In this document: positions 3,001-59,431 of the stretch, piece by piece | Layout of the letters: each line of letters starts with the position of its first letter | How positions within the stretch are numbered: the stretch's first letter is position 1 | Assembly (NCBI GenBank): GCA_964598765.1 | Contig: CAZRCZ010000001.1 | Location: 342,327-406,326, forward strand | From: an uncultured Candidatus Sumerlaeota bacterium | GTDB taxonomy: Bacteria > Sumerlaeota > Sumerlaeia > MVZB01 > JAJFLK01 | Reading direction: 5' to 3' | Length of the DNA: 64,000 bases | Translations under genes and position numbers: made by a program | The notes under the pieces: generated by a model | Told to the model about the DNA's origin: nothing | Databases searched by the model: none | Seen by the model: the letters and a program-made list of their open reading frames with translations, nothing else

Positions 3001-3766
3001 TGAAACACATGAACATGAAAACGTCGTTGAACGTGTCCGCGCCGCCGGTGACGACCATGTCGGATCGCCCCGATGCGAGTTCGAGCGTGGCCAGATGCGC
3101 GGCGCTGATCGAACTGGCGCACGCGGCGTCCACGACGCAATTCGTCCCGCCGAGATCGAGACGATTGGCAATCCGCCCCGCGACGACGTTGCCGAGCAAA
3201 CCGGGGAACGAACCTTCCTGCCATACGACATATTGATCGCCGATGCTCTTGACGATCTCGTCTGCGGGCTTGCCTTTAATTCCGTGGTCCTCGAGCGCGC
3301 GGCGCCAGATCGGATGGCCGAGCCGTCCGCCGAGAGCGATGGAAAGCTGAAGCGTTCCGGTGACGCCGAGGATCACGCCGACGCGCTCGCGGTTGAATTG
3401 GCGGTCCGCGCCGTATCCCGCGTCGGCCAGTGCGCCCTGCGCGACGATCAAACTCAAAATTTGCGAGGAATCGGTAGCCTCAAGCGTGTGGGGAGAAATG
3501 CCGAATTCGGTTGGATCGAAATCCACCGGCGAAAGAAATCCGCCGCGACGGCAATAGGTGTGGTCCGGTTTTTTGGGATCGGCGTCATAGTAATCGTCGG
3601 CGTTCCAATGCGAAGGAGGAACGTCGGAGACCGCATCCACGCCGCGCTTGATGTTGGACCAATACCCGCCAAGGCTCTGCGCCTTGGGAAAAAGGCAACT
3701 CATCCCGACGATGGCGATGGGAGTCGGACGGATTGTTTCTTCGGAGCTAATGGAGGTCTCCCTCAA
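1..3766 (-). CDS. pfaA: PfaA-like polyunsaturated-fatty-acid/polyketide synthase, N-terminal KS-AT-ACP portion (3' end lies beyond window start)
   Basis: Minus-strand frame is open from the window edge to ~3766 (absent from ORF track because it runs off the edge). Translation gives PIAIVGMSCLFP...YCRRGGFLSPVDFDPTEFGISP...DSSQILSLIVA (as at the PfaA N-terminus), KS motifs DAACASS (~3110-3130) and HGTGT, acyltransferase motif GHSFGEL (1707-1727), and ACP motif LGIDSIKRVEILS (~240-280). Start uncertain: TTG 3766 or ATG 3703. Confidence 0.8.
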   Translation of the reverse strand, partial: MRETSISSEETIRPTPIAIVGMSCLFPKAQSLGGYWSNIKRGVDAVSDVPPSHWNADDYYDADPKKPDHTYCRRGGFLSPVDFDPTEFGISPHTLEATDSSQILSLIVAQGALADAGYGADRQFNRERVGVILGVTGTLQLSIALGGRLGHPIWRRALEDHGIKGKPADEIVKSIGDQYVVWQEGSFPGLLGNVVAGRIANRLDLGGTNCVVDAACASSISAAHLATLELASGRSDMVVTGGADTFNDVFMFMCFSKTPALSPTGDIRPFDADADGTMLGEGIGMVVLKRLKDAERDGDKIYAVIKGIGTSSDGRGKAIYAPSAEGQVRALEQAYRLSGVSPATVELVEAHGTGTKAGDAAEVSALKKVYRSARESGVWCALGSVKSQIGHTKAAAGVAGLIKIALALHHKILPPTIKVSKPAPALVDKETPFYVSTEKRPWLARKGHPRRAAVSAFGFGGSNFHAVLEEFRSEKSGADWDGRVQIAALSAESLDDLKTEIARWSAMDSWDSACRMAAASRREFSSLHPYRLVVVLEKDKADFKKLFGGALDRLVREKEKVSWSLPEGAYFGRSRKPGKLAFLFPGQGSQYVGMARDLICLFPKMQEALTQADLAYGDVADLACQLSDFILPHATFSEEAKKLNELALRATHVAQPAIGAISMGMVCLLTMFGAHPAMAAGHSFGELMALFTGGRIDAKTLLHLAKVRGELMAKASDNKGSMIAVQASLEEAVRVIEEERLGLTVANLNAPRQIVLSGPTPKVERAAEIFRKRKLTCATLPVGAAFHSALVASAQAPFREALREAEISPGKIPVYSNTTNETYPDDADQARDLLGTQLANPVNFRSEIERMYEDGARTFVEVGPGAKLTGLVKAILGEREYHAIAADASSGRGDGIADFARALAQLAALGHPVDLRLWEPESSQSDAQPKKHSRMTVSICGAQYRAASPKKISSAEKNGNGAPAIVESREEIQTTMSPQPAKIEFSPQEAPKRHTPAPPPKTFPAAPASPSVSTSPLPSFSDSTANPILLEALRTAQENLVAVQRLQEQTTQIHRRFLEGQESSLRALQELMTRQQGLYEQALGMKPAINTNGAGVPSAIAPGTNPSIHAQDARDSMLEVVKPTAEERYGTTSDSIPSTDFATLLLEIVGEKTGYPVETLNLSMDLESDLGIDSIKRVEILSAVQEKLPDAPAIQPDQMGKLRTLDQIIAFLSQNSTSHRNPVSIRQAEGLVHGSRGQRPRLGKLDHDERPERAS

Positions 3767-16781: not shown

Positions 16782-16840
16782 AAGGATTTTGGATGAGCGG
16801 GAAGAAGGCGGAGTGAAATGAGATTAAAATTAAGATTAGG

Positions 16841-16888
16841 AGCAAGAGCAAGAGCAAGAGCAAGAGTAAGAGTAAGAGTAAGAGCAAG
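16841..16888 (+). repeat. Hexanucleotide tandem repeat (AGCAAG/AGTAAG) x8 in fmt leader
   Basis: agcaag x4, agtaag x3, agcaag x1 read directly; lies 64-111 nt upstream of fmt ATG. Confidence 0.9.
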
Positions 16889-16951
16889 AGAAGCGGAATC
16901 GGAATCTTAAGTTTCCAACCTCAAAACTCGGATCTAAAATTAAAGTTTAAG

Positions 16952-17911: not shown

Positions 17912-18019
17912 CGCGATTTCATCAAAAGAGGATGAGGCGTTCCTCCCCTGAATCAGGGCGCGTATTAATCCTTGCGGGTATTCCGCAACCCCTTCGGGGT
18001 TGAATGGGCATCGCGCCAA

Positions 18020-18081
18020 CCCAAGGTAGCTTCGCATGGCTCGGCAACCTTGGGCTTCGATTCGGGACGCCGTTGGCGTCC
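18020..18081 (+). repeat. REP-like double-hairpin element, copy 1
   Basis: cccaaggtagc...ggcaaccttggg hairpin followed by gggacgcc-gtt-ggcgtcc hairpin; ~80% identical to the reverse complement of 21185-21248. Confidence 0.8.
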
Positions 18082-19695: not shown

Positions 19696-20994
19696 TCACG
19701 CCAATCCCGACCGTTCGGCGGAACTGATAATCCCCAACTCCAACGCTTTTTCCGCCCGCAGGATGCCCCATGACGTCGCGCGGCGGAGTCGGGCGCGGAG
19801 GTGGCGGTCGGTGGCGCGGTCGGCCATGTAGGCGGCCTTCCCTTCGCCGAGCATTGTCGCGCCGGAGCCGGAGGCGACGCTCGCGCTGTAGGCTTCGATC
19901 TCCTTGAGGTCGCTCTCGACTTGTTTGGCGGGAATCGCGTTGCGATAGGCGGCCATGACCATCAGCAACTGCGCCGGATGGCCGACCCATTTGCCGCTCA
20001 TGCCGAGCGCGATGCCGTGCATGGCGTCGTCGTAAACTTCCTTGAGCGCGCCGAGGATTTTATCTTTGTTGGCCTGCGTTTGCTCGGGCGTGAGGTTTTT
20101 GTCGCGGTAGATCGGCGTCGGGTAGTTGAGCGTCATGCAATCAATCGCCGGGACGTTGAGCGCGCCGGCAACGTTGACAATTTCATATCGCGCCCAGTCG
20201 CAGACCGGATGGTCGTTCTTGATTTTGGGGAGATTGGCGTCGGCGCTGTAATCGGCGATGCCCCAGATGATCCCGGCGAGCCGATGCGCCGAGGTCCGCG
20301 CAAGTTCGTCAATCCGATTAAGCGCGTAACCGGACTCGACGAGGAACTCCAACTTGATCTGATTTTCGGCAAGGCCGAGTTGCTTTTCGACTTTGCCGAG
20401 GATGTCGCAAACCCACGCGATCTCTTCGGGATGCTCGGCCTTGGGCCAGACGATTCCGGCGATGGGATAATTTTCGGGGGCGCGTCCCTTGGCGACTTCG
20501 GTCAGGACGATCAGAATGTCCTCGACGCAGGAATCAAGACGCAATCCCGCCGGACGGAAAAAGGGAAGTGTCGTGCCCCAGTTTTCCTGAGTGAAAACGC
20601 GGATTGCCCCTTGGCGCGCCTTGTGAATCGTGTCCTCCGTCAGCGCGACGGCGTCCTCGGCGTCCACCATGACGAAAGGAGAATTTTTGTTTTCGCCGTG
20701 GAGAATTTCAAGAACCGTGGCCAGCGGCGCGCCGGTCGCGTCGGCGATTTCGTGGGGCGTGATGTGAAACCGCTCCAAAATTTTTGCGACCGCGCTCAGA
20801 CCCTGAATCGCCTTTTCGGGCGTCCCGCTGGCCGGAGTCGTGAAATGCGCCTGCTGGTTCCAGTATCGCAGGGGCATGTCCGCGCTCAGGCGCGAGCGTT
20901 GGCGCAGAAGATCCTGCCGTCGCGCCGAGGCGGTTTCGGCGATGGCTTGATATGTCGGGGCGACTTCCAATTTGGACAAGGCGGCCTGTTCCAT
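19696..20994 (-). CDS. HpcH/HpaI aldolase / citrate-lyase beta-subunit (CitE)-like protein
   Basis: 432-aa ORF with FVMVDAEDA (DxED metal-binding motif of CitE/malyl-CoA lyase family); larger than canonical CitE. Confidence 0.6.
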   Translation of the reverse strand: MEQAALSKLEVAPTYQAIAETASARRQDLLRQRSRLSADMPLRYWNQQAHFTTPASGTPEKAIQGLSAVAKILERFHITPHEIADATGAPLATVLEILHGENKNSPFVMVDAEDAVALTEDTIHKARQGAIRVFTQENWGTTLPFFRPAGLRLDSCVEDILIVLTEVAKGRAPENYPIAGIVWPKAEHPEEIAWVCDILGKVEKQLGLAENQIKLEFLVESGYALNRIDELARTSAHRLAGIIWGIADYSADANLPKIKNDHPVCDWARYEIVNVAGALNVPAIDCMTLNYPTPIYRDKNLTPEQTQANKDKILGALKEVYDDAMHGIALGMSGKWVGHPAQLLMVMAAYRNAIPAKQVESDLKEIEAYSASVASGSGATMLGEGKAAYMADRATDRHLRARLRRATSWGILRAEKALELGIISSAERSGLA

Positions 20995-21184
20995 GCGAGC
21001 GGTTCTCCCTGCGATGCGGTTTGGCGTTCAAAATGCGAGCGGTTGAAATTATCACGCCGGAGGGGGAAGCGTCAATTGCGGGTCACAGCCGCGAGCGTCA
21101 AATCGGGATACGCTTGAATTGCCCGCCTTCATAACTCGTCGGGTTCCGAAGACGCTTGTGTCTCGAGATGCGGAAAATCTGCGG

Positions 21185-21248
21185 GGAACGCCAAGAGGCG
21201 TTCCGGAACAAAGCCCAAGGTCGCCGAGCGTAGCGAGGCTACCTTGGG
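21185..21248 (-). repeat. REP-like double-hairpin element, copy 2 (abuts RAYT gene)
   Basis: ggaacgcc-aaga-ggcgttcc hairpin plus cccaaggtcgcc...ggctaccttggg hairpin; reverse complement aligns with 18020-18081. Confidence 0.8.
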
Positions 21249-21301
21249 TCCCCAAAAGCCACGATTGCAACCTCAACGAGGTTGCGGCATGATTTTCTCC
21301 G

Positions 21302-21712
21302 ATGCCGCAGTCACTTTCCGCCGTTTATCTTCATTTGGTTTTCTCCACGAAAGACCGGCGCCCTCTTCTTCGCGACCACACCCTGCGCGAAAGGTTACAC
21401 GCCTACTTGGCCGGCATTTCCAATCAATTGGATTGTCCTGTCCTCATTGTGGGAGGCGTCGAGGATCACGTTCACTTGTTGGCGCGGTTCGGACGGACGG
21501 TGACTCAGGCTGAATGGGTGAAAGAATTGAAGCGGGTGTCGAGCATCTGGCTTAAGAAACGCGGACGCCAATACGCCGATTTTGCATGGCAATCGGGATA
21601 CGCCGTATTTTCGGTGAGCCAATCCAAATTGAATCACGCGAAAATATATATCGCGCAACAGGAGGACCACCATCGGCGATTGAGATTTCAGGACGAGAGA
21701 CGATGTCAGTGA
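21302..21712 (+). CDS. IS200-like / REP-associated tyrosine transposase (RAYT) family protein, possibly C-terminally truncated
   Basis: AVYLHLVFSTKDRRPLL, HuH motif VEDHVHLL, YAVFSVS, IAQQEDHHRRLRFQDE. Ends soon after FQDE, shorter than I would expect for this family (from memory). Confidence 0.75.
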   Translation: MPQSLSAVYLHLVFSTKDRRPLLRDHTLRERLHAYLAGISNQLDCPVLIVGGVEDHVHLLARFGRTVTQAEWVKELKRVSSIWLKKRGRQYADFAWQSGYAVFSVSQSKLNHAKIYIAQQEDHHRRLRFQDERRCQ

Positions 21713-21862
21713 TGAACGGCACAAGTTCACTTGGCAGCCACATGGTTCGCAATTCACGATCATTGAATATGTGCCGCAGGACAGACTTGCGATCCGTCTC
21801 AAGAAACCTCCCCCAAAGATCGATCGTTCCAAACTACTGAATGAATTGCAGTTTGACAGTTC

Positions 21863-22339
21863 TTGGGTGGAGATACTCAAATCCTAAAAGTGGACACGGT
21901 CAGCGCGAAAAAACGCTCATGGATAATGGCTCAGATAAAATCGGCCGGGAATGAATCAACCGAGGGGCGTCTGGCAAAGCAGTTCCGTAACCACGCAATC
22001 AAGGGTTGGAGGAGAAAATCCAAGCTACTTGGCAAACCGGATTTTGTATTTCGTCGCGCTCGCGTTGCCGTTTTCGTGGATGGATGCTTCTGGCATGGAT
22101 GTCCCACCCATTGCAGATTGCCCACTACGCGACGGGCTTATTGGACGAACAAAATTGCCAAAAACATGCGGCGAGACAGAAATATCCGTGCGGCTCTCAG
22201 GCGTGGCGGGTGGACGGTATGGCGCTTTTGGGAGCATGAAATTCGCTCACCCTCAGTAGAAGAAAAACTTCGAGGATTAAGGCGAACAATTCGAGTCAGG
22301 TCGAAAAAGATGAATCCTCGAGTCGGTCGTCAAGAATGA
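21863..22339 (+). CDS. vsr: Very-short-patch-repair endonuclease (Vsr)
   Basis: Motifs KRSWIMAQIKS, GKPDFVF, AVFVDGCFWHGC, WTVWRFWEHE match Vsr. ORF-track start is TTG; GTG 21890 or ATG 21922 possible. Confidence 0.8.
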   Translation: MGGDTQILKVDTVSAKKRSWIMAQIKSAGNESTEGRLAKQFRNHAIKGWRRKSKLLGKPDFVFRRARVAVFVDGCFWHGCPTHCRLPTTRRAYWTNKIAKNMRRDRNIRAALRRGGWTVWRFWEHEIRSPSVEEKLRGLRRTIRVRSKKMNPRVGRQE

Positions 22340-22475
22340 GACTGATGGCCACGCGGACGCTGTCGCGGCATTCCGCAATGGATTCGCCTTGGCCATTCGC
22401 GCCGGGAACTTCCGGGCAGTAGCCGATGTAAAAGTTCTTTCCCTTTTCAATGATGACGGTAAATTCGCGATGCAT
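22296..22475 (-). CDS. hicB: HicB-like antitoxin domain protein (UPF0150), no adjacent HicA
   Basis: MHREFTVIIEKGKNFYIGYCPEVPGANGQGESIAECRDSVRVAISLIL fits HicB N-terminal fold. Start at ATG 22475 with GGGAG-like RBS upstream; longer ORF-track version overlaps apbE. Confidence 0.55.
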   Translation of the reverse strand: MHREFTVIIEKGKNFYIGYCPEVPGANGQGESIAECRDSVRVAISLILDDRLEDSSFST

Positions 22476-22542
22476 TGAGAGACTCCCTTCGTCTTCGCTA
22501 ATGATATAAGGAAGCGGCAGTATCGCGCCACTCAAACGACGC

Positions 22543-23583
22543 TCACACTCTTCGATAGGATGGAAACTCTCCCACCTGAACAAACTTCAATCCGCCGTTG
22601 GCGTCGAGATCGAGGTTGAGGCCGGAGACGCCCGCCGGAAGAAGATCGGGCGATGCGTCGCGTCCGGCGACAAACAGCGCGGTCGAGGCCGCGTCGGCTT
22701 CCATGCAGGTCGCGGCGAAGGCCGACGAACTGAGATACGTGTTAGATCGTTCGCCTGATTGCGGGTTGAACTTGTCCATCCGTTCCGGCCTGATTTTGAA
22801 GTCGGAGAAATCATAGTTGCCCGACGTGGCGATGGCCTGATTGGCCAGCTCAAAAATCGCGCAGACTCCCGCGCGGGTCGGGTCCTGCAAACCGACTTTC
22901 CAACCGGGCGCGTCGGTCGGACAGCCATGCACGTAGAGGTCGCCGCCGGCCTCGACGATGGCGTTGGCGATTCCCCATTTGTCGCGCAGGACGGCGATGG
23001 CGCGATCCACGGCGTAGCCTTTGGCGATGCCGCCAAGATCAAAACCCATTCCCTTGCGTTGCAATCCCAACTGACGCCCCTCGATCCGAATTTGGCGGTA
23101 ATCCACGAGTTCGCGCGCCTCGGCGATCGTGTCCGGAATGTCGTCGGCCTCGGGATGCAATCCGCCAGCCTTGAGCAAGGGAAGCGCGGTGATGTCGAAC
23201 AGCGCGCCGGATTGTTTCGCCCAGCGCAATCCCGATCGAACGACCTCGATGATGCGGGGATCCACTTCCAACATTTCGCTCCCCGCGACGCGATTGACGC
23301 GCGAGAGGGGTGTGAACCGCCGATGAATGCTCATCAAATCCTCGACGAGTTGGATTTCCGCGATGGCGTCGAGAACGGCCTCGCGCGCCTTGTTCTCCTT
23401 CTCGCCGATGACGACGAGGTGAACGACGGTTCCCATCGCCTGCCATGCCTTGCGGCAATCCTTGTCGGCGACCGACGCCGCCCAGCTTCCTTTCGGGATT
23501 CCCAGCGAGAAAACGGACGATCCGATGCCGACCATGCCAAGTTGCTTCAAAAAATCGCGGCGATCAGGTGATTTGAATGTCAT
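22543..23583 (-). CDS. apbE: FAD:protein FMN transferase (ApbE family), Tat-exported
   Basis: Tat motif RRDFLK at N-terminus; ApbE core (GFDLGGIAKGYAVDRA, TSGNYD). Confidence 0.85.
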   Translation of the reverse strand: MTFKSPDRRDFLKQLGMVGIGSSVFSLGIPKGSWAASVADKDCRKAWQAMGTVVHLVVIGEKENKAREAVLDAIAEIQLVEDLMSIHRRFTPLSRVNRVAGSEMLEVDPRIIEVVRSGLRWAKQSGALFDITALPLLKAGGLHPEADDIPDTIAEARELVDYRQIRIEGRQLGLQRKGMGFDLGGIAKGYAVDRAIAVLRDKWGIANAIVEAGGDLYVHGCPTDAPGWKVGLQDPTRAGVCAIFELANQAIATSGNYDFSDFKIRPERMDKFNPQSGERSNTYLSSSAFAATCMEADAASTALFVAGRDASPDLLPAGVSGLNLDLDANGGLKFVQVGEFPSYRRV

Positions 23584-23615
23584 GTCTTATATCTCCCTAA
23601 ATTCTATGAATACTT

Positions 23616-23709
23616 AAACACAAAGACACAAAGAAGGCACAAAGAATGGTGAGGCCGTGTGTCTTCCTAATCCCTTGTATTCTTTGTGACTCCTTCGTGT
23701 CTTTGTGTA
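23616..23709. repeat. Imperfect palindrome of tandem CACAAAG heptamers (CACAAAG subfamily, copy 1)
   Basis: Arms aaacacaaagacacaaagaaggcacaaagaatg and cattctttgtgactccttcgtgtctttgtgt separated by ~30 nt; shares a 23-nt identical core with 57445-57571. Confidence 0.85.
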
Positions 23710-23715
23710 TAATCT

Positions 23716-33461: not shown

Positions 33462-34625
33462 ATGAAACTCAACCCTTACCCTGCCCTCTCTCTCGGAAAG
33501 GGAGAGGGTTTGCATGGGCAAAAATCCACCCGAGCCGCGACCGTGAGGGAGCGCCCAGCCCGCGAAATTCTTGTTTTCGGGCGCTCCCTCACGGTCGCGG
33601 CTCTGATGTTGCAGTTCTTCTTTTTCTTTGCTCGCGCCGCTGAAATCGCGCTCCATCCCGGGCATCACGAAATCACGTTCAAGAACGGCAAGACCGCCCA
33701 AGGGGAAATTCTGGCCGTCGAAGGGGAAAAATTTCGCTTCCAGCCCTACGAGGGGTCCGCGTTTGTCCTTCCGTTGGATCGAATCCAAACCGCCCGTGCG
33801 CTTTCGCCGGCGGAAGGCGTGCTTTTTCAATCGCGCCAGATGGCGGAGAAGGGAAAGCTCGATGAAGCCGTGCGATTATTGACGCGGAGCGCCGGGATGG
33901 AGGGAGGAGCCGCGCTGGAAGGGGAGCTGATGAGGCGGCTGAACGAATTGAATCGCCTGATAAAAGCGTCGCAGAAAAAAGAATTGGCGGAATTCGAGAA
34001 AAAATTCGAGGAATTACTGGACCGCAATCAACTTCACGACGCGCTCGATCTGGCGAGGCAAACGCTCAAGGATCATCCCGACGATCCCGACCTGCTCGGC
34101 GACGCCGCGCTGGCGGAATTTCGGATTCATCGCGGGCAAGGGGGGATCGCGAGCGAGTTTCGCTCGTTCCATTTGGATCGTTTGAAAAAAGCCGATCCGC
34201 AATCGCCAATCCTGCTCGGGATTCAAGCGGAAATGGGGGTCTCGGAGAAGCTTCAGGCCAAATGGGAATCCGACCGTAAGGCGTTCTTGGCGACCGCCTT
34301 GGACGATGCGGCGCGCTTTTACGAGAATTTCCAACTTCAAGAAGCCAAGGACATCCTCGACAAGGCGCTGGCGCTCGATCCGCCCGATGATCTGCTTGGT
34401 CCGCTGAAGGAACTGGCGGCCAAAGTGGACGCCGAAATTGCCGGCGGGTCCAAGGATCAGGCGCTACGGGAACGCGAACGCCTCCGCGCGCTCGAAGAAA
34501 AAACAAAGATGGAAGGGGAGTCGTCGGGCAAATCGCTGAGTGAATCCGAATCCAAGAAACTGGATAAAAAGCGCGCCCGCAGAATTCAGCAACGCGCGAT
34601 TGACCAAAGCCGTGGACCGAGATGA
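33462..34625 (+). CDS. Hypothetical exported coiled-coil / TPR-like protein
   Basis: 387-aa ORF, hydrophobic N-terminal segment, helical repeat-like C-terminus. True start may be ATG 33606 because 33532-33603 forms a perfect hairpin. Confidence 0.4.
   Translation: MKLNPYPALSLGKGEGLHGQKSTRAATVRERPAREILVFGRSLTVAALMLQFFFFFARAAEIALHPGHHEITFKNGKTAQGEILAVEGEKFRFQPYEGSAFVLPLDRIQTARALSPAEGVLFQSRQMAEKGKLDEAVRLLTRSAGMEGGAALEGELMRRLNELNRLIKASQKKELAEFEKKFEELLDRNQLHDALDLARQTLKDHPDDPDLLGDAALAEFRIHRGQGGIASEFRSFHLDRLKKADPQSPILLGIQAEMGVSEKLQAKWESDRKAFLATALDDAARFYENFQLQEAKDILDKALALDPPDDLLGPLKELAAKVDAEIAGGSKDQALRERERLRALEEKTKMEGESSGKSLSESESKKLDKKRARRIQQRAIDQSRGPR
33532..33603. repeat. Perfect 25-bp inverted repeat (hairpin)
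   Basis: gagccgcgaccgtgagggagcgccc ... gggcgctccctcacggtcgcggctc with 22-nt loop; located 78 nt after the PaaI stop. Confidence 0.85.
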
Positions 34626-46876: not shown

Positions 46877-46882
46877 TTAAAA

Positions 46883-46957
46883 TTCACCACAGAGACACAG
46901 AGAGGGTGAAAAAATGCGGACTCGCACTTTTCTACTTCTCTGTGTCTGCGTGGTGAA
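46883..46957. repeat. Imperfect palindrome of tandem CACAGAG heptamers (between convergent genes)
   Basis: Arms ttcaccacagagacacagagagg and cttctctgtgtctgcgtggtgaa; loop ~29 nt; sits between the mqn-like stop and the GT4 stop. Confidence 0.85.
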
Positions 46958-48187: not shown

Positions 48188-48281
48188 AACGCAGAGGCGC
48201 GGAGGACGCAGAGATTGAATGAAGGTCTTGTCTCAATTTGAAATACTCTGCGTTTCTCCGCGTTCTCTGCGCCTCTGCGTT
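48188..48281. repeat. Imperfect palindrome of tandem CGCAGAG units
   Basis: Arms aacgcagaggcgcggaggacgcagag and ctctgcgtttctccgcgttctctgcgcctctgcgtt; between MaoC-like stop and GT4 start. Confidence 0.85.
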
Positions 48282-52100: not shown

Positions 52101-53061
52101 CGACGCAATAGACGAGCCGCGCCTTGTCGCCGGCGTCGGAGTTGTTGTCGCCGGTGAAGAGATTGCCGTAGTCGTCAAAGACGAGTTCCTGCGGGTTGCG
52201 GAGTCCGGTGCAGAACGGCTCCAATTGCGAGCCGTCGGGATTGCAACGGAAGACCGCGCCGGTGTCGGGAAGGTCAATGACGCGCCCTTCGGTTTCGATA
52301 TGCGCGCCGCGGTCGCCGATGCTGAAATAAAGTTTGCCGTCGGGGCCTTTGCGCAGACCGTGGAGATCGTGGCCGAGAAAATTAAAGTGGACGCCGTAGC
52401 CCGTGCTGAGCGATTTGCGTTCGTCGGCCTTGCCATCGCCGTCGGTGTCGCGCAGTTTCCAGAGATCCGGGATGCAGGTGTAGTAAATGTCCCCTTGATC
52501 GGCGAGTAATCCCGCGCCGACGCCGTCCTCCGCGTGGTTGAATCCGTCGGCATAAACGACGGCGCGGTCGGCTTTGCCGTCGCCGTCGGTGTCTTCGAGC
52601 AGACGGATGCGCTCGTGCTGTTTGTCGTAGTCCGCGAACGACTCGCCGAGGTTTTTCTTCATCGCGGCGAGCCGATCCGCGACGGTCCGGCTCGCCAGAT
52701 CGTCGTCGAGCCAGAGGCGGTGCGTCCGCATGTCAAGCACGCCGTCATAGAGGCGGAACGTCTCGCCGACGTAAAACCGCCCCTTGTTGTCCAAGCAGAA
52801 ACAGACCGGATTGGCGAGCATCGGCTCGGCGGCGAAAAGCTCGATCTTGAATCCGTCGGCGATTTTGAATTTCTTGATCGCCTTTTCCCCTTCGTCGGAG
52901 GCGGGGTTGATTTGGGGATGATAGGCGGGGTCTTCGGCAAAGGCGAAGGTAAAAAGGGAAAATAAAATCACCACAGAGGCGCAGAGGCACAGAGTAGGGG
53001 CGACCCGTTGAGTCGCCCGCTTTCTTCTCTGTGTCTCTGTGACTCTGTGGTTTTTCTTCAT
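49156..53061 (-). CDS. Large exported protein with beta-propeller 'membrane-bound dehydrogenase'-like domain, HEAT repeats and C-terminal cytochrome-c (CxxCH) domain
   Basis: 1301 aa; N-terminal signal-like segment, HEAT-repeat middle, CQKCH heme-binding motif near C-terminus, acidic Lys/Glu-rich tail. Confidence 0.75.
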   Translation of the reverse strand: MKKNHRVTETQRRKRATQRVAPTLCLCASVVILFSLFTFAFAEDPAYHPQINPASDEGEKAIKKFKIADGFKIELFAAEPMLANPVCFCLDNKGRFYVGETFRLYDGVLDMRTHRLWLDDDLASRTVADRLAAMKKNLGESFADYDKQHERIRLLEDTDGDGKADRAVVYADGFNHAEDGVGAGLLADQGDIYYTCIPDLWKLRDTDGDGKADERKSLSTGYGVHFNFLGHDLHGLRKGPDGKLYFSIGDRGAHIETEGRVIDLPDTGAVFRCNPDGSQLEPFCTGLRNPQELVFDDYGNLFTGDNNSDAGDKARLVYCVEGGDSGWRIGYQWIEKPVQRGPWNGEKIWHLPWKGQAAYIVPPVAHVAAGPAGFAFYPGTGMPERYKDHFFLCDFRGGAGISLIHTFKVQPKGASFEMTDREDFLKGSLVTDVDFGAEGGIYWTDWTEGWDQPHKGRLYHAFDPAVKNDPLVKEAKEILAGNLDRYSDYELGELLAHQDQRVRFEAQYELARRDLRRLQTGRDSDFMLFGTLGTIAFISPQTYSEEFKNSWTSGEYPDAQARALLQLAEKCSRSPWARLHAIWGIGEVLSKLGPKVEPKSEAVAQSPQDKEKEFQFIFSLVVSTLISGNDLKLGPEGEKAAGELLGKGLGEFLSDPRNRGEAVLVECLKDENAEIRAQAIKVLSDIHSVILNSNESHLTELLDLLKDASLRVRFFTAMSLGKIVNPGVPAMPPSEEIKTRYISALAEMLRENNDADPYLRHAGVMGLVGIGDAEALLKHADDESSAVRMGILLALRRMQKPEIARFLKDRDPALVSEAAHAINDVPIADALPELAGMIGQSENILKMADADVVGKPVMLRILNANFRLGGAENAKAIAEFASRSEPPEVVRLEALGELKDWASPSGRDRVIGVWRPLPKRDPETAARALRPILPELLRSAPNKILQACAQLAGQYQVAEAGAPLFALLSDAKKPTEARVEALRALGEFEDPNLAKAVNLARADAADALRNEGNAQLAKLDPAGAASVLATALNGGSILEKQGALATLADLEGAQFDQLLSTWLDSLAAKKVPAEIQLDLLEAAQKHPNDEIKMKLARYQSAISTDDPLGGFRESLFGGNAERGEKIFFEKTEVTCQKCHTVKSKVGGEVGPELPSVGTRKGREYILESILHPNAQIAEGFENVTLTMKDGKEYAGRVLEEEGNQILLEIPVQEEGEEFVEEEDAPKGTEAKKDEKEDEKEKDKNEKWESEATKGPRVTKMTLPKDQIVSRQHNLSSMPEDISENLAKSELRDLVEFISTLK
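52968..53052. repeat. Imperfect palindrome of tandem CACAGAG units (overlaps 5' end of the large dehydrogenase ORF)
   Basis: Arms atcaccacagaggcgcagaggcacagag and ttctctgtgtctctgtgactctgtggtt with an inner gggcgac-ccgttga-gtcgccc hairpin. Confidence 0.85.
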
Positions 53062-53064
53062 TGT

Positions 53065-54015: not shown

Positions 54016-54031
54016 GTTTATTCCCTTCTTA

Positions 54032-54113
54032 TTCACCACAGAGACGCAGAGGTACAGAGAAATACTTGGACGCTTTTCACTTCTTCTCTGTGTCTCCTTG
54101 CCTCTGTGGTGAA
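54032..54113. repeat. Imperfect palindrome of tandem CACAGAG units
   Basis: Arms ttcaccacagagacgcagaggtacagagaa and ttctctgtgtctccttgcctctgtggtgaa; immediately upstream of the sugar-binding-protein start. Confidence 0.85.
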
Positions 54114-54766
54114 TCATCTTTTACTTTTCGATACCTCCCCACAAACACCACCGGTTCCGCGGTCGCCTTATCACCGTAAATACCGCTCCCCTCAACGCAA
54201 TGCGCATCCCCCTCCACCCACTCGCGGAACGACTCAAGAACGCTCGGCGCGGAGCGGGACCAGAACAAATAATTCCCTTCGATCTTCCCAGTGCGAAAAA
54301 TCACCTCGCCGCCGTTTTTGCGGATGATCTTGCACCGGATCGTTTTCAGTTCGAAGTCCGCGCTGTAGAGCGCGCTCTCGCGTACCGTCTTGCCGGTCTT
54401 GGGATCGGTGATCTCGAAATGCCCCTCCTGCTGAAATTCCTTGTCGGCGAGGACGTGGCGATAATCCTGTCGGACTTTGACCTTGGAGACCGGCTCGCCG
54501 GTGAATTTGTAGGTGGCGAGCTCTCCCTCCCAAACTCCATCCCATGCCTTGAAGGGAGAAGCGACCGATTGCGCCGTCGCGGGAACCGAGAGGGCTTTGA
54601 TGAGCGCCAAGACGCCAAACCCCGAGATCCACAGAAGGAGAACTATGACCAACAGACGCGAAACCCAGAGGGGATAAGCGCGTTCCGATTTGTCTTCAGA
54701 AGATTCCAAGGATTTTTTTCCGTTTCTTGTCAGAGGCGGGCTTCTTTGCGTTGCCGTTTTCCGCAT
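54077..54766 (-). CDS. Hypothetical membrane-anchored protein
   Basis: 229-aa ORF with one N-terminal TM helix; overlaps upstream peptidase gene end and the 54032-54113 repeat; start uncertain. Confidence 0.4.
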   Translation of the reverse strand: MRKTATQRSPPLTRNGKKSLESSEDKSERAYPLWVSRLLVIVLLLWISGFGVLALIKALSVPATAQSVASPFKAWDGVWEGELATYKFTGEPVSKVKVRQDYRHVLADKEFQQEGHFEITDPKTGKTVRESALYSADFELKTIRCKIIRKNGGEVIFRTGKIEGNYLFWSRSAPSVLESFREWVEGDAHCVEGSGIYGDKATAEPVVFVGRYRKVKDDSPQRQGDTEKK

Positions 54767-57371: not shown

Positions 57372-57444
57372 CCCTCTCTCACGCTTTAATTGCTCTGGAA
57401 TCGTGCAGAAAATCTCTGAAATCCGCAAGGGAGTTGGCAGAGGG

Positions 57445-57571
57445 ATTAAACACAAAGACACAAAGAAGGCGCAAAGGTCACAAAGAATGAAGGGATTCCG
57501 CGAATGAAAATCAGAGGCGGATGTTATTCCTTCGTGTCCTTCGTGCCTTCTTTGTGTCTTTGTGTTTAATC
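57445..57571. repeat. Imperfect palindrome of tandem CACAAAG heptamers (CACAAAG subfamily, copy 2)
   Basis: Arms gattaaacacaaagacacaaagaaggcgcaaaggtcacaaagaatgaagg and ccttcgtgtccttcgtgccttctttgtgtctttgtgtttaatc. Confidence 0.85.
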
Positions 57572-59253: not shown

Positions 59254-59289
59254 TTCTTGCTCTTGCTCTTACTCTTGCATCTGCTCTTA
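59254..59289 (-). repeat. Hexanucleotide (AAGAGC-like) tandem repeat in nadE leader
   Basis: Plus-strand cttgct cttgct cttact cttgca tctgct cttaat; in nadE sense it reads attaagagcagatgcaagagtaagagcaagagcaag, 25-60 nt upstream of the proposed start. Confidence 0.85.
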
Positions 59290-59431
59290 ATCCAGAAGAA
59301 ATTCGCCGGGTTTGTTTCAAAAACGGCCGGAACGCGACAATGATGAGAAGACTCACGCGAGCGGGAAATTATTGACACCCCATGTAAATTGACCGCATGA
59401 TACGGCGCATTAGGCTGGCGAGGTTGCCCCC

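Follow-up and report, generated by a model that had tools for sequence, protein, structure and literature searches.

Endonucleases of the Vsr family act on T:G mismatches that lie within the context recognized by a cognate m5C methyltransferase: they bind the mismatch and nick the DNA 5' of the T, which starts short-patch repair. Such mismatches arise on deamination of 5-methylcytosine. As the reference we used the enzyme of the E. coli Dcm-Vsr pair (1CW0), in which we take D51, H64 and H69 to be the catalytic residues, F67, W68 and W86 to be the intercalating residues, and C66, H71, C73 and C117 to form the zinc site. The second point of reference is the hicBA type of toxin-antitoxin module; toxin-antitoxin modules in decay are common, as are orphan antitoxins. 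Linkage between vsr and a methyltransferase gene is usual, but not obligatory: the vsr-like gene vsrA of Caulobacter crescentus is unlinked to the gene of its methyltransferase ScmA, yet its product is functional, and solitary vsr genes have also been noted among sequenced genomes (PMC12907096). The vsr genes of Neisseria adjoin C5-methyltransferase genes, sometimes truncated (as summarised in PMC12907096).

The DNA analysed here, referred to as the window, is a stretch of 64 kb from an uncultured Candidatus Sumerlaeota bacterium. It contains a patch of ~1.5 kb of accessory DNA (20995-22542) made of three unrelated leftovers: a gene for an IS200-like Y1 transposase, an intact vsr, and the 5' part of a hicB gene whose end overlaps that of vsr. 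We propose, with a probability of about 0.75, that this patch is what decay has left of mobile restriction-modification/vsr and hicBA modules, in which a deletion-type join produced the overlap. Otherwise the window is occupied by housekeeping genes (Pfam analysis of ~45 ORFs: Lon, DsbD, UbiA, sigma-70, fmt, DnaB, ApbE, GFO oxidoreductase, Kup, EF-G, S7, S12, haem-synthesis, NAD synthase and biotin carboxylase, among others), and the patch lies between two of them. On its left is a gene assigned by Pfam to DUF6986, resembling HpcH-type lyases (19696-20994, minus strand), the closest relatives of which come from Sumerlaeota MAGs (71-75% identity); on its right is apbE (FAD:protein FMN transferase family; 22543-23583, minus strand). 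The GC content is 0.49-0.53 across 21350-22550 vs ~0.6 in the flanks. At third codon positions (GC3) vsr has 0.49 and the Y1 transposase gene 0.60, vs 0.688 +/- 0.045 in host genes (n = 35, minimum 0.61). Vsr is thus compositionally foreign, and its low GC3 marks it as recently acquired. An Rfam search over 17.5-24 kb reported only sub-threshold matches to miRNA precursors, on a long hairpin at 23615-23711.

A comparison of synteny with related genomes was proposed together with the original prediction. The protein search found no relative of ApbE above 53% identity besides ApbE itself, and in the nearest one (about 52-53%) the GFO-ApbE gene pair is kept; the gene after it is convergent and unrelated, and hicB, vsr and Y1 are all missing downstream of apbE. 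No syntenic close relative was found in the collections: a scan for the DUF6986 neighbour yielded 16 loci, and the neighbouring genes were not common to any of them.

The vsr gene encodes a protein of 149 aa (21890-22339, plus strand) if translation starts at the GTG codon 21890; the maximal ORF starts at TTG 21863 and would give 158 aa. The GTG start is favoured by the N-termini of the family (MDTxS...) and by an independent gene call (P0001, 149 aa, 100% identical to the GTG-start form); the 149-aa form is on record, while the 158-aa form has no exact match there. Profile HMM searches confirmed that the ORF does not result from chance and that its product is a member of the Vsr family (TIGR00632: 105.3 bits, curated NCBIfam cut-off 97.85, E-value 2e-30; PF03852: 58.6 bits, cut-off 27; the Vsr model of PADLOC: 59.7 bits), with 4,486 homologues at E <= 1e-5. 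As in the E. coli enzyme, the key residues are conserved: the alignment to E. coli Vsr (1CW0/1VSR, E-value 4e-16) shows D51, C66, F67, W68, H69, W86, N93 and D97 in place, and the zinc ligands of 1CW0 are retained with Cys/His swaps (C/C/C/H). Unlike in E. coli, the position of H64 is occupied by Asp, which is however invariant throughout this subfamily (22-sequence alignment); all 35 of the 35 invariant columns of the same family alignment are kept. Judging from this conservation, the protein is probably still active as a nicking endonuclease, and it would take part in very-short-patch repair of the ordinary kind, provided that the genome encodes a C5-methyltransferase at another site. The family-conserved part of the gene corresponds to 21890-22285 (to about residue 132 of the 149-aa form), and the remaining 17 codons (22286-22339) encode a tail that is unconserved in the family alignment.

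A further difference from the E. coli pair is that no dcm gene is adjacent to vsr or present in the 64-kb window. We found no C5-methyltransferase (PF00145-type) in it by any of three approaches. Tblastn searches with M.HhaI and two methyltransferases from vsr relatives reported nothing significant. A Dcm profile HMM, built locally from more than 40 methyltransferases adjoining vsr relatives and run with filters off against the six-frame translation, gave a best match with an E-value of 0.13, far from vsr, and detected no fragment of a methyltransferase. Pfam analysis of the ~45 ORFs was also negative. Within the window, the 21.9 kb to the left of vsr and the 41.7 kb to its right are thus free of such genes. 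A 14-aa motif-like tblastn match at the vsr/hicB junction (TRGFIFFDLTRIVR, 22323-22282, minus strand, E-value 0.34) was considered as a possible remnant of dcm and judged to be a chance hit: it has a stop two codons upstream, no ENV motif follows it, and the Dcm HMM did not recover it.

We compared this situation with 83 loci of vsr relatives (80 from a metagenome scan and three further ones). A C5-methyltransferase gene lies within 3.3 kb of vsr in 48 of them, at less than 300 nt in 24 and at 0.3-3.3 kb in another 24, often with an intervening gene (for instance, the order M-R-V in L003, which like L002 is a further vsr locus with a linked C5-methyltransferase). Sequence of 3.9 kb or more is available on each side of vsr in 17 loci, and 16 of these have a C5-methyltransferase within 3.9 kb. 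The vsr of the window hence belongs to a small minority, and since nearly all well-flanked relatives have a methyltransferase nearby, it probably descends from a linked vsr-dcm (restriction-modification) module from which it was later separated. As in Neisseria, vsr would then have outlived the decay of its partner module; in the window, however, methyltransferase fragments are not detectable.

The hicB ORF encodes 59 aa on the minus strand, from ATG 22475 down to 22296 (the maximal ORF extends to 22583), with a Shine-Dalgarno-like GGGAG box 8 nt upstream of the ATG. It starts 68 nt downstream of the stop codon of apbE, on the same strand. HMM searches, which the original prediction had named as a check for both genes, supported the assignment of Vsr as described above, while that of HicB was left without confirmation at this level: the score against the Pfam family UPF0150 (PF21748) is 19.2 bits, below the cut-off of 27.3, and neither NCBIfam nor PADLOC reported a match. 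The evidence comes instead from its 718 homologues (E <= 1e-3), nearly all of them 71 aa long. The closest reaches 85% identity, and the source records describe many of them as "HicB family antitoxin" or "RNase H-like HicB family nuclease". Used as a tblastn query, the best relative aligns to 22475-22314 with an E-value of 4e-29. Hence, despite the low Pfam score, the homology to HicB/UPF0150 is clear on the grounds of sequence similarity, and the ORF is clearly not a chance one.

Comparison with 17 relatives revealed that codons 1-54 (22314-22475) are homologous to the 71-aa HicB/UPF0150 proteins, up to the sequence ...LILDDRLED. As in the type II hicBA modules with a short, 71-aa HicB, these 54 residues (60-85% identical) include the invariant IGYCPEVPGANGQG block. 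Codons 55-59, in contrast, read SSFST followed by a stop and are non-homologous, in place of the family sequence GLRGxPxDAIRETxVVE, which extends to residue 71; the nearly invariant L56, G58, P60 and A63 (36-sequence alignment) are absent. Nor did tblastn detect the missing C-terminus in the other frames or at any other place in the window. The sequence comparison therefore shows hicB to be truncated at codon 54 of 71. Weak structural relatives of this short HicB type are TTHA1756 (2YZT), TTHA0281 (2DSY) and HicB (6G1C). The closest full-length relative, modelled with AlphaFold2 (AF2; pLDDT 91), has three strands, a helix at residues 33-56 and coil at 57-71. According to this model the truncation would take away the conserved tail and leave the beta-beta-beta-alpha core. 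The stump may therefore be able to fold even now, and a HicA made from another locus could be its target. Given the good ribosome-binding site and the same orientation as apbE, the stump may also still be expressed.

For this subfamily the original prediction is right in that HicB normally has HicA as its partner, in the order hicB then hicA: hicA lies directly downstream of hicB in 4 of 5 independent relatives. The two genes overlap by 4 nt at the hicB stop codon in L005-L008 (hicB 3001-3216, hicA 3213-3398) and in L108 (hicB 1501-1716, hicA 1713-1910), and in L009/L010, L109 and L110 hicA is there although the gene-calling pipelines left it uncalled. The only relative without hicA is L107, with a full-length solitary hicB. 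In the window, a local HicA HMM run on the six-frame translation with filters off found no hicA anywhere in the 64 kb (best E-value 0.82), and below 22296, where it is expected, one finds the 3' part of vsr on the opposite strand. It is the constant order of the subfamily that makes the deletion of hicA visible here. The claim that neither dcm nor hicA lies in the window is thus borne out by tblastn, by HMMs with filters off and by Pfam, all of them negative. We also scanned viral contigs with the HicB alignment and found no relatives. With its last 17 residues and the downstream hicA lost, the stump is a remnant and not a module, and most likely it is a decaying one that lacks a toxin in cis. 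It is worth mentioning that the hicA genes downstream of hicB in this subfamily are often left uncalled in public contigs.

Vsr (plus strand) and hicB (minus strand) converge, and their tail-to-tail overlap at 22296-22339 comprises 44 nt including both stop codons, exactly as the ORF list and the sequence had been read in the original prediction (~44 bp). The family alignments and the end-points of the tblastn matches divide the region 22286-22339 into two parts. The 28 nt at 22286-22313 are homologous to neither family, and we refer to them as the junction; it includes the five non-native codons and the stop of hicB (22296-22313) as well as part of the non-native tail of vsr. The following 26 nt (22314-22339) are derived from hicB, of which they represent codons 46-54 (LILDDRLED, family consensus LILQDRLED), and vsr reads them in antisense as far as its TGA. 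In other words, this vsr ends in eight sense codons and a stop codon that are antisense hicB, which is another feature that sets it apart from its E. coli counterpart. Because this stretch is antisense to conserved hicB codons, the present end of vsr cannot be the native one. The length of the tail by itself does not show the loss of the native stop, since its 34 aa after the WE motif are within the range of the family (13 of 117 relatives have one as long); that loss is indicated solely by the fact that 22314-22339 belongs to hicB. As the end of vsr consists of hicB DNA, the overlap is a read-through of a join that removed both native stops and not a designed arrangement. A scan for promoters and terminators between the two genes gave nothing informative.

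In terms of mechanism, a single rearrangement, most simply a deletion, would have brought codon 54 of hicB up against the 3' region of vsr, with the loss of both native stop codons, hicB codons 55-71, hicA and anything that lay between. Each ORF would then run across the 28-nt junction to the first chance stop, which yields the 44-nt overlap. We infer the deletion from the present arrangement; none of the relatives in the collections is close enough to display the ancestral state, with an intact hicBA and an adjacent dcm. The truncated hicB, the missing hicA, the foreign vsr without a methyltransferase and the read-through of the junction all agree with the earlier suggestion of a small mobile or defence islet of which a remnant is left. 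A C5-methyltransferase gene on the downstream side of vsr, alone or together with a restriction gene, could also have been lost in the same deletion. In 16 of the 24 adjacent loci dcm is downstream of vsr, i.e. on the side that corresponds to the junction in the window; however, over all 48 linked loci the methyltransferase is upstream about as often as downstream, and for this reason we put forward the joint loss only tentatively.

A join of this kind in a metagenome-assembled genome, with an islet whose composition is unlike that of its flanks, might also come from chimeric assembly or binning. This is exceedingly improbable, since a separately assembled Logan contig (L001, run SRR12313479) is 100% identical to the window over 5,201 nt that span Y1, vsr, hicB, apbE and GFO, including the vsr/hicB junction; moreover, both ORFs are open across the join and hicB is found in the expected place and on the expected strand after apbE.

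The original prediction had offered, as an alternative to a remnant, that the solitary genes have new roles. One version of it is that vsr and the short hicB form a functional, selected convergent pair, for instance one in which the hicB transcript exerts antisense control over a nicking endonuclease, or a new pairing in defence. Both ORFs are indeed open, hicB keeps a good ribosome-binding site and a predicted core, convergent transcription would give complementary 3' ends, and a perfect 9-bp inverted repeat (22270-22278 / 22313-22321) brackets the junction. The repeat, however, is weak (z = -2.1; 7 of 200 shuffled sequences fold as well), the tails that overlap are the unconserved parts of both proteins, and hicB is deprived of residues that are nearly invariant in its family. 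In addition, the arrangement is unique: hicB occurs near none of the 83 relatives of vsr, no vsr was seen beside those hicB relatives whose contigs were fetched, and PADLOC recognizes nothing beyond its ordinary Vsr model. A vsr gene without a linked methyltransferase has a precedent in the ordinary role (Caulobacter VsrA, PMC12907096). We therefore regard a selected pair as highly improbable and this part of the original prediction as unsupported. The juxtaposition of vsr and hicB is idiosyncratic and does not recur among the 83 loci; what we observe is ordinary gene decay, and both genes are ordinary members of known families that do not constitute a new system.

The third gene of the patch (21302-21712, plus strand) encodes a 136-aa protein with the Y1 (HUH) domain (PF01797, E-value 1.7e-24). 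The label "RAYT" given to it in the original prediction is not supported, as the protein fails the curated RAYT model (NF047646, REP_Tyr_transpos; 22.4 bits vs the cut-off of 80) and passes that of IS200 (NF033573; 63.1 bits vs 55). Upstream of the gene there is a REP-like hairpin element of 53 nt, CCCAAGGT...ACCTTGGG (21197-21249, plus strand), and a second hairpin (21265-21287, plus strand) ends 14 nt before the start codon; the fold of 21190-21301 has a z-score of -3.15, and this two-hairpin layout resembles the left end of IS200. An inverted second copy of the REP-like element is located ~3.1 kb away, between fmt and the 3' end of dnaB (18019-18071, minus strand). The two copies are 83% complementary, their core pattern found no match in 100 shuffled sequences, and they are the only ones in the 64 kb searched. 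The locus thus shares with the IS200/RAYT transposases the HUH/Y1 domain, the two upstream hairpins and one further hairpin copy, and differs from them in failing the RAYT model, in the low number of copies and in that no link to vsr is seen elsewhere.

These features allow for a different origin of the islet, namely the insertion of an IS200-like Y1 element carrying vsr as cargo into an intact hicBA, which it would have split. Y1 and vsr have the same orientation, with the Y1 gene 150-177 nt upstream; the three genes share one low-GC patch, and the hairpins upstream of the Y1 gene are of the IS200 type. Nevertheless, an insertion should have left the remainder of hicB and hicA on its far side, and neither is present in the window. 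No significant hairpin is present between Y1 and vsr (z = 0.07), vsr lies beyond the limits of an IS200 unit of normal size, the GC3 values of the two genes differ, and Y1 transposase genes were found near 0 of the 83 vsr loci. We thus consider the cargo scenario unlikely; the data fit an IS200-like or RAYT-like gene that happens to lie beside vsr rather than an element that carries it.

Returning to the decayed remnant as the preferred explanation, one may ask which methylation systems its Vsr could have served. CCWGG occurs 5 times in the window vs ~85 expected (O/E 0.06) and GCWGC 3 times vs ~91 (O/E 0.03), while the next-lowest 5-mer has an O/E of 0.56. CTWGG and GTWGC, the products of deamination, show no excess, and among the 5-mers of the window the hybrid words CCWGC/GCWGG are over-represented most strongly. 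The pattern looks like restriction avoidance, and such 5-mer statistics are an indirect hint that m5C methyltransferase systems exist or existed in the lineage, but no evidence of a partner. They bear on one more alternative, in which the lone vsr has been kept to act with one or more unlinked C5-methyltransferases, and the transcript of the truncated hicB, fully complementary to the 3' end of vsr, damps vsr expression. CCWGG and GCWGC, both almost absent from the window, would be the candidate specificities of the partners. By analogy, a vsr kept in this way would stabilise methyltransferase genes by damaging the DNA upon loss of methylation, a role proposed for VsrA of Caulobacter (PMC12907096). 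The window vsr is similar to vsrA in having no C5-methyltransferase gene as a neighbour; however, the partner of VsrA is known from elsewhere on its chromosome, whereas the gene described here is foreign, is positioned at a deletion scar and was read within 64 kb of sequence. We judge retention of the gene for such a function, together with damping by hicB, to be distinctly unlikely.

For biology at large the locus matters little. It illustrates cleanly how the scar of a deletion between two mobile modules can mimic an "overlapping orphan gene pair", and such overlaps need to be checked against the lengths typical of the families before they are read as new systems. As for the organism itself, the unusually strong avoidance of CCWGG and GCWGC makes the host lineage a reasonable one in which to seek active m5C restriction-modification systems that vsr might serve.

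Among the public contigs that carry relatives of the window's hicB gene (a 71-aa subfamily with hicA normally downstream), four contain a hicA gene of 61-65 aa that overlaps the hicB stop codon and was left uncalled by the source pipelines (L009, 3195-3404; L109, 1698-1907; L110, 1683-1901; and also L010). Since the pipelines missed hicA in several contigs, "orphan hicB" annotations in this subfamily are frequently gene-calling artefacts. Truly solitary members do exist, as illustrated by contig L107, in which a full-length 71-aa hicB gene of the same subfamily (1501-1716) is flanked by two CoA-transferase genes, with no hicA beside it.

The junction between vsr and the truncated hicB in the window is flanked on both sides by a perfect 9-bp inverted repeat, TCGAGGATT / AATCCTCGA (22270-22278 / 22313-22321). 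Its statistical support is low (z = -2.1; equal folding in 7 of 200 shuffles), and it could be due to chance or represent a relic of the rearrangement.

Other repeats in the window include a family of long intergenic palindromes built of CACAAAG/CACAGAG-type heptamers (23614-23712, 46882-46913, 52952-53062, 54031-54128 and 57444-57571), with arms of 31-45 nt and 78-97% complementarity, situated between genes within gene strings of the minus strand. For one of them (23615-23711) Rfam reported matches to miRNA precursors, all of them below the threshold; these reflect only the hairpin shape. Two further strong hairpins, intergenic or intragenic, at 33527-33608 (arms of 30 nt, 93% complementary) and 48188-48281 (27 nt, 89%), show no relation to the other repeat families of the window, and two distant AAGAGC/AAGAGT hexamer microsatellite tracts (16829-16890 and 59255-59291) are found in opposite orientations.

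The collections searched contained no close relative of the window's organism (window as a whole; L011, L024, L111). The best match of the ApbE gene that flanks the islet on the right exhibits 53% identity, the best matches of the DUF6986 lyase-like gene on the left (71-75% identity) come from Candidatus Sumerlaeota MAGs, and the top named Vsr matches are likewise from Sumerlaeota. Two loci encode close relatives of the window's Vsr in compact three-gene modules, with the order vsr-dcm-DUF4928 in L002 (6001-8505) and dcm, an unknown 245-aa gene and vsr in L003 (4267-6420); each of the two modules probably constitutes a type II restriction-modification system to which a Vsr is attached.

Oligonucleotide counts over the entire window (1-64000) revealed 5 CCWGG sites vs ~85 expected (O/E 0.06; 7854, 33343, 36024, 51567, 61524) and 3 GCWGC sites vs ~91 expected (O/E 0.03; 6322, 21734, 26199), one of the latter three being located in the islet. 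The 5-mer counts over the same range showed no excess of the deamination products of CCWGG or GCWGC, and the most over-represented 5-mers are CCWGC/GCWGG. GTAC is found 8 times vs 58 expected, and several palindromic 6-mers (CTCGAG, GTCGAC, ATCGAT, GCATGC, AGATCT) exhibit O/E of ~0.1. On the basis of these word counts, the extreme scarcity of CCWGG, GCWGC and GTAC in the window, together with that of the palindromic 6-mers, looks like restriction avoidance.
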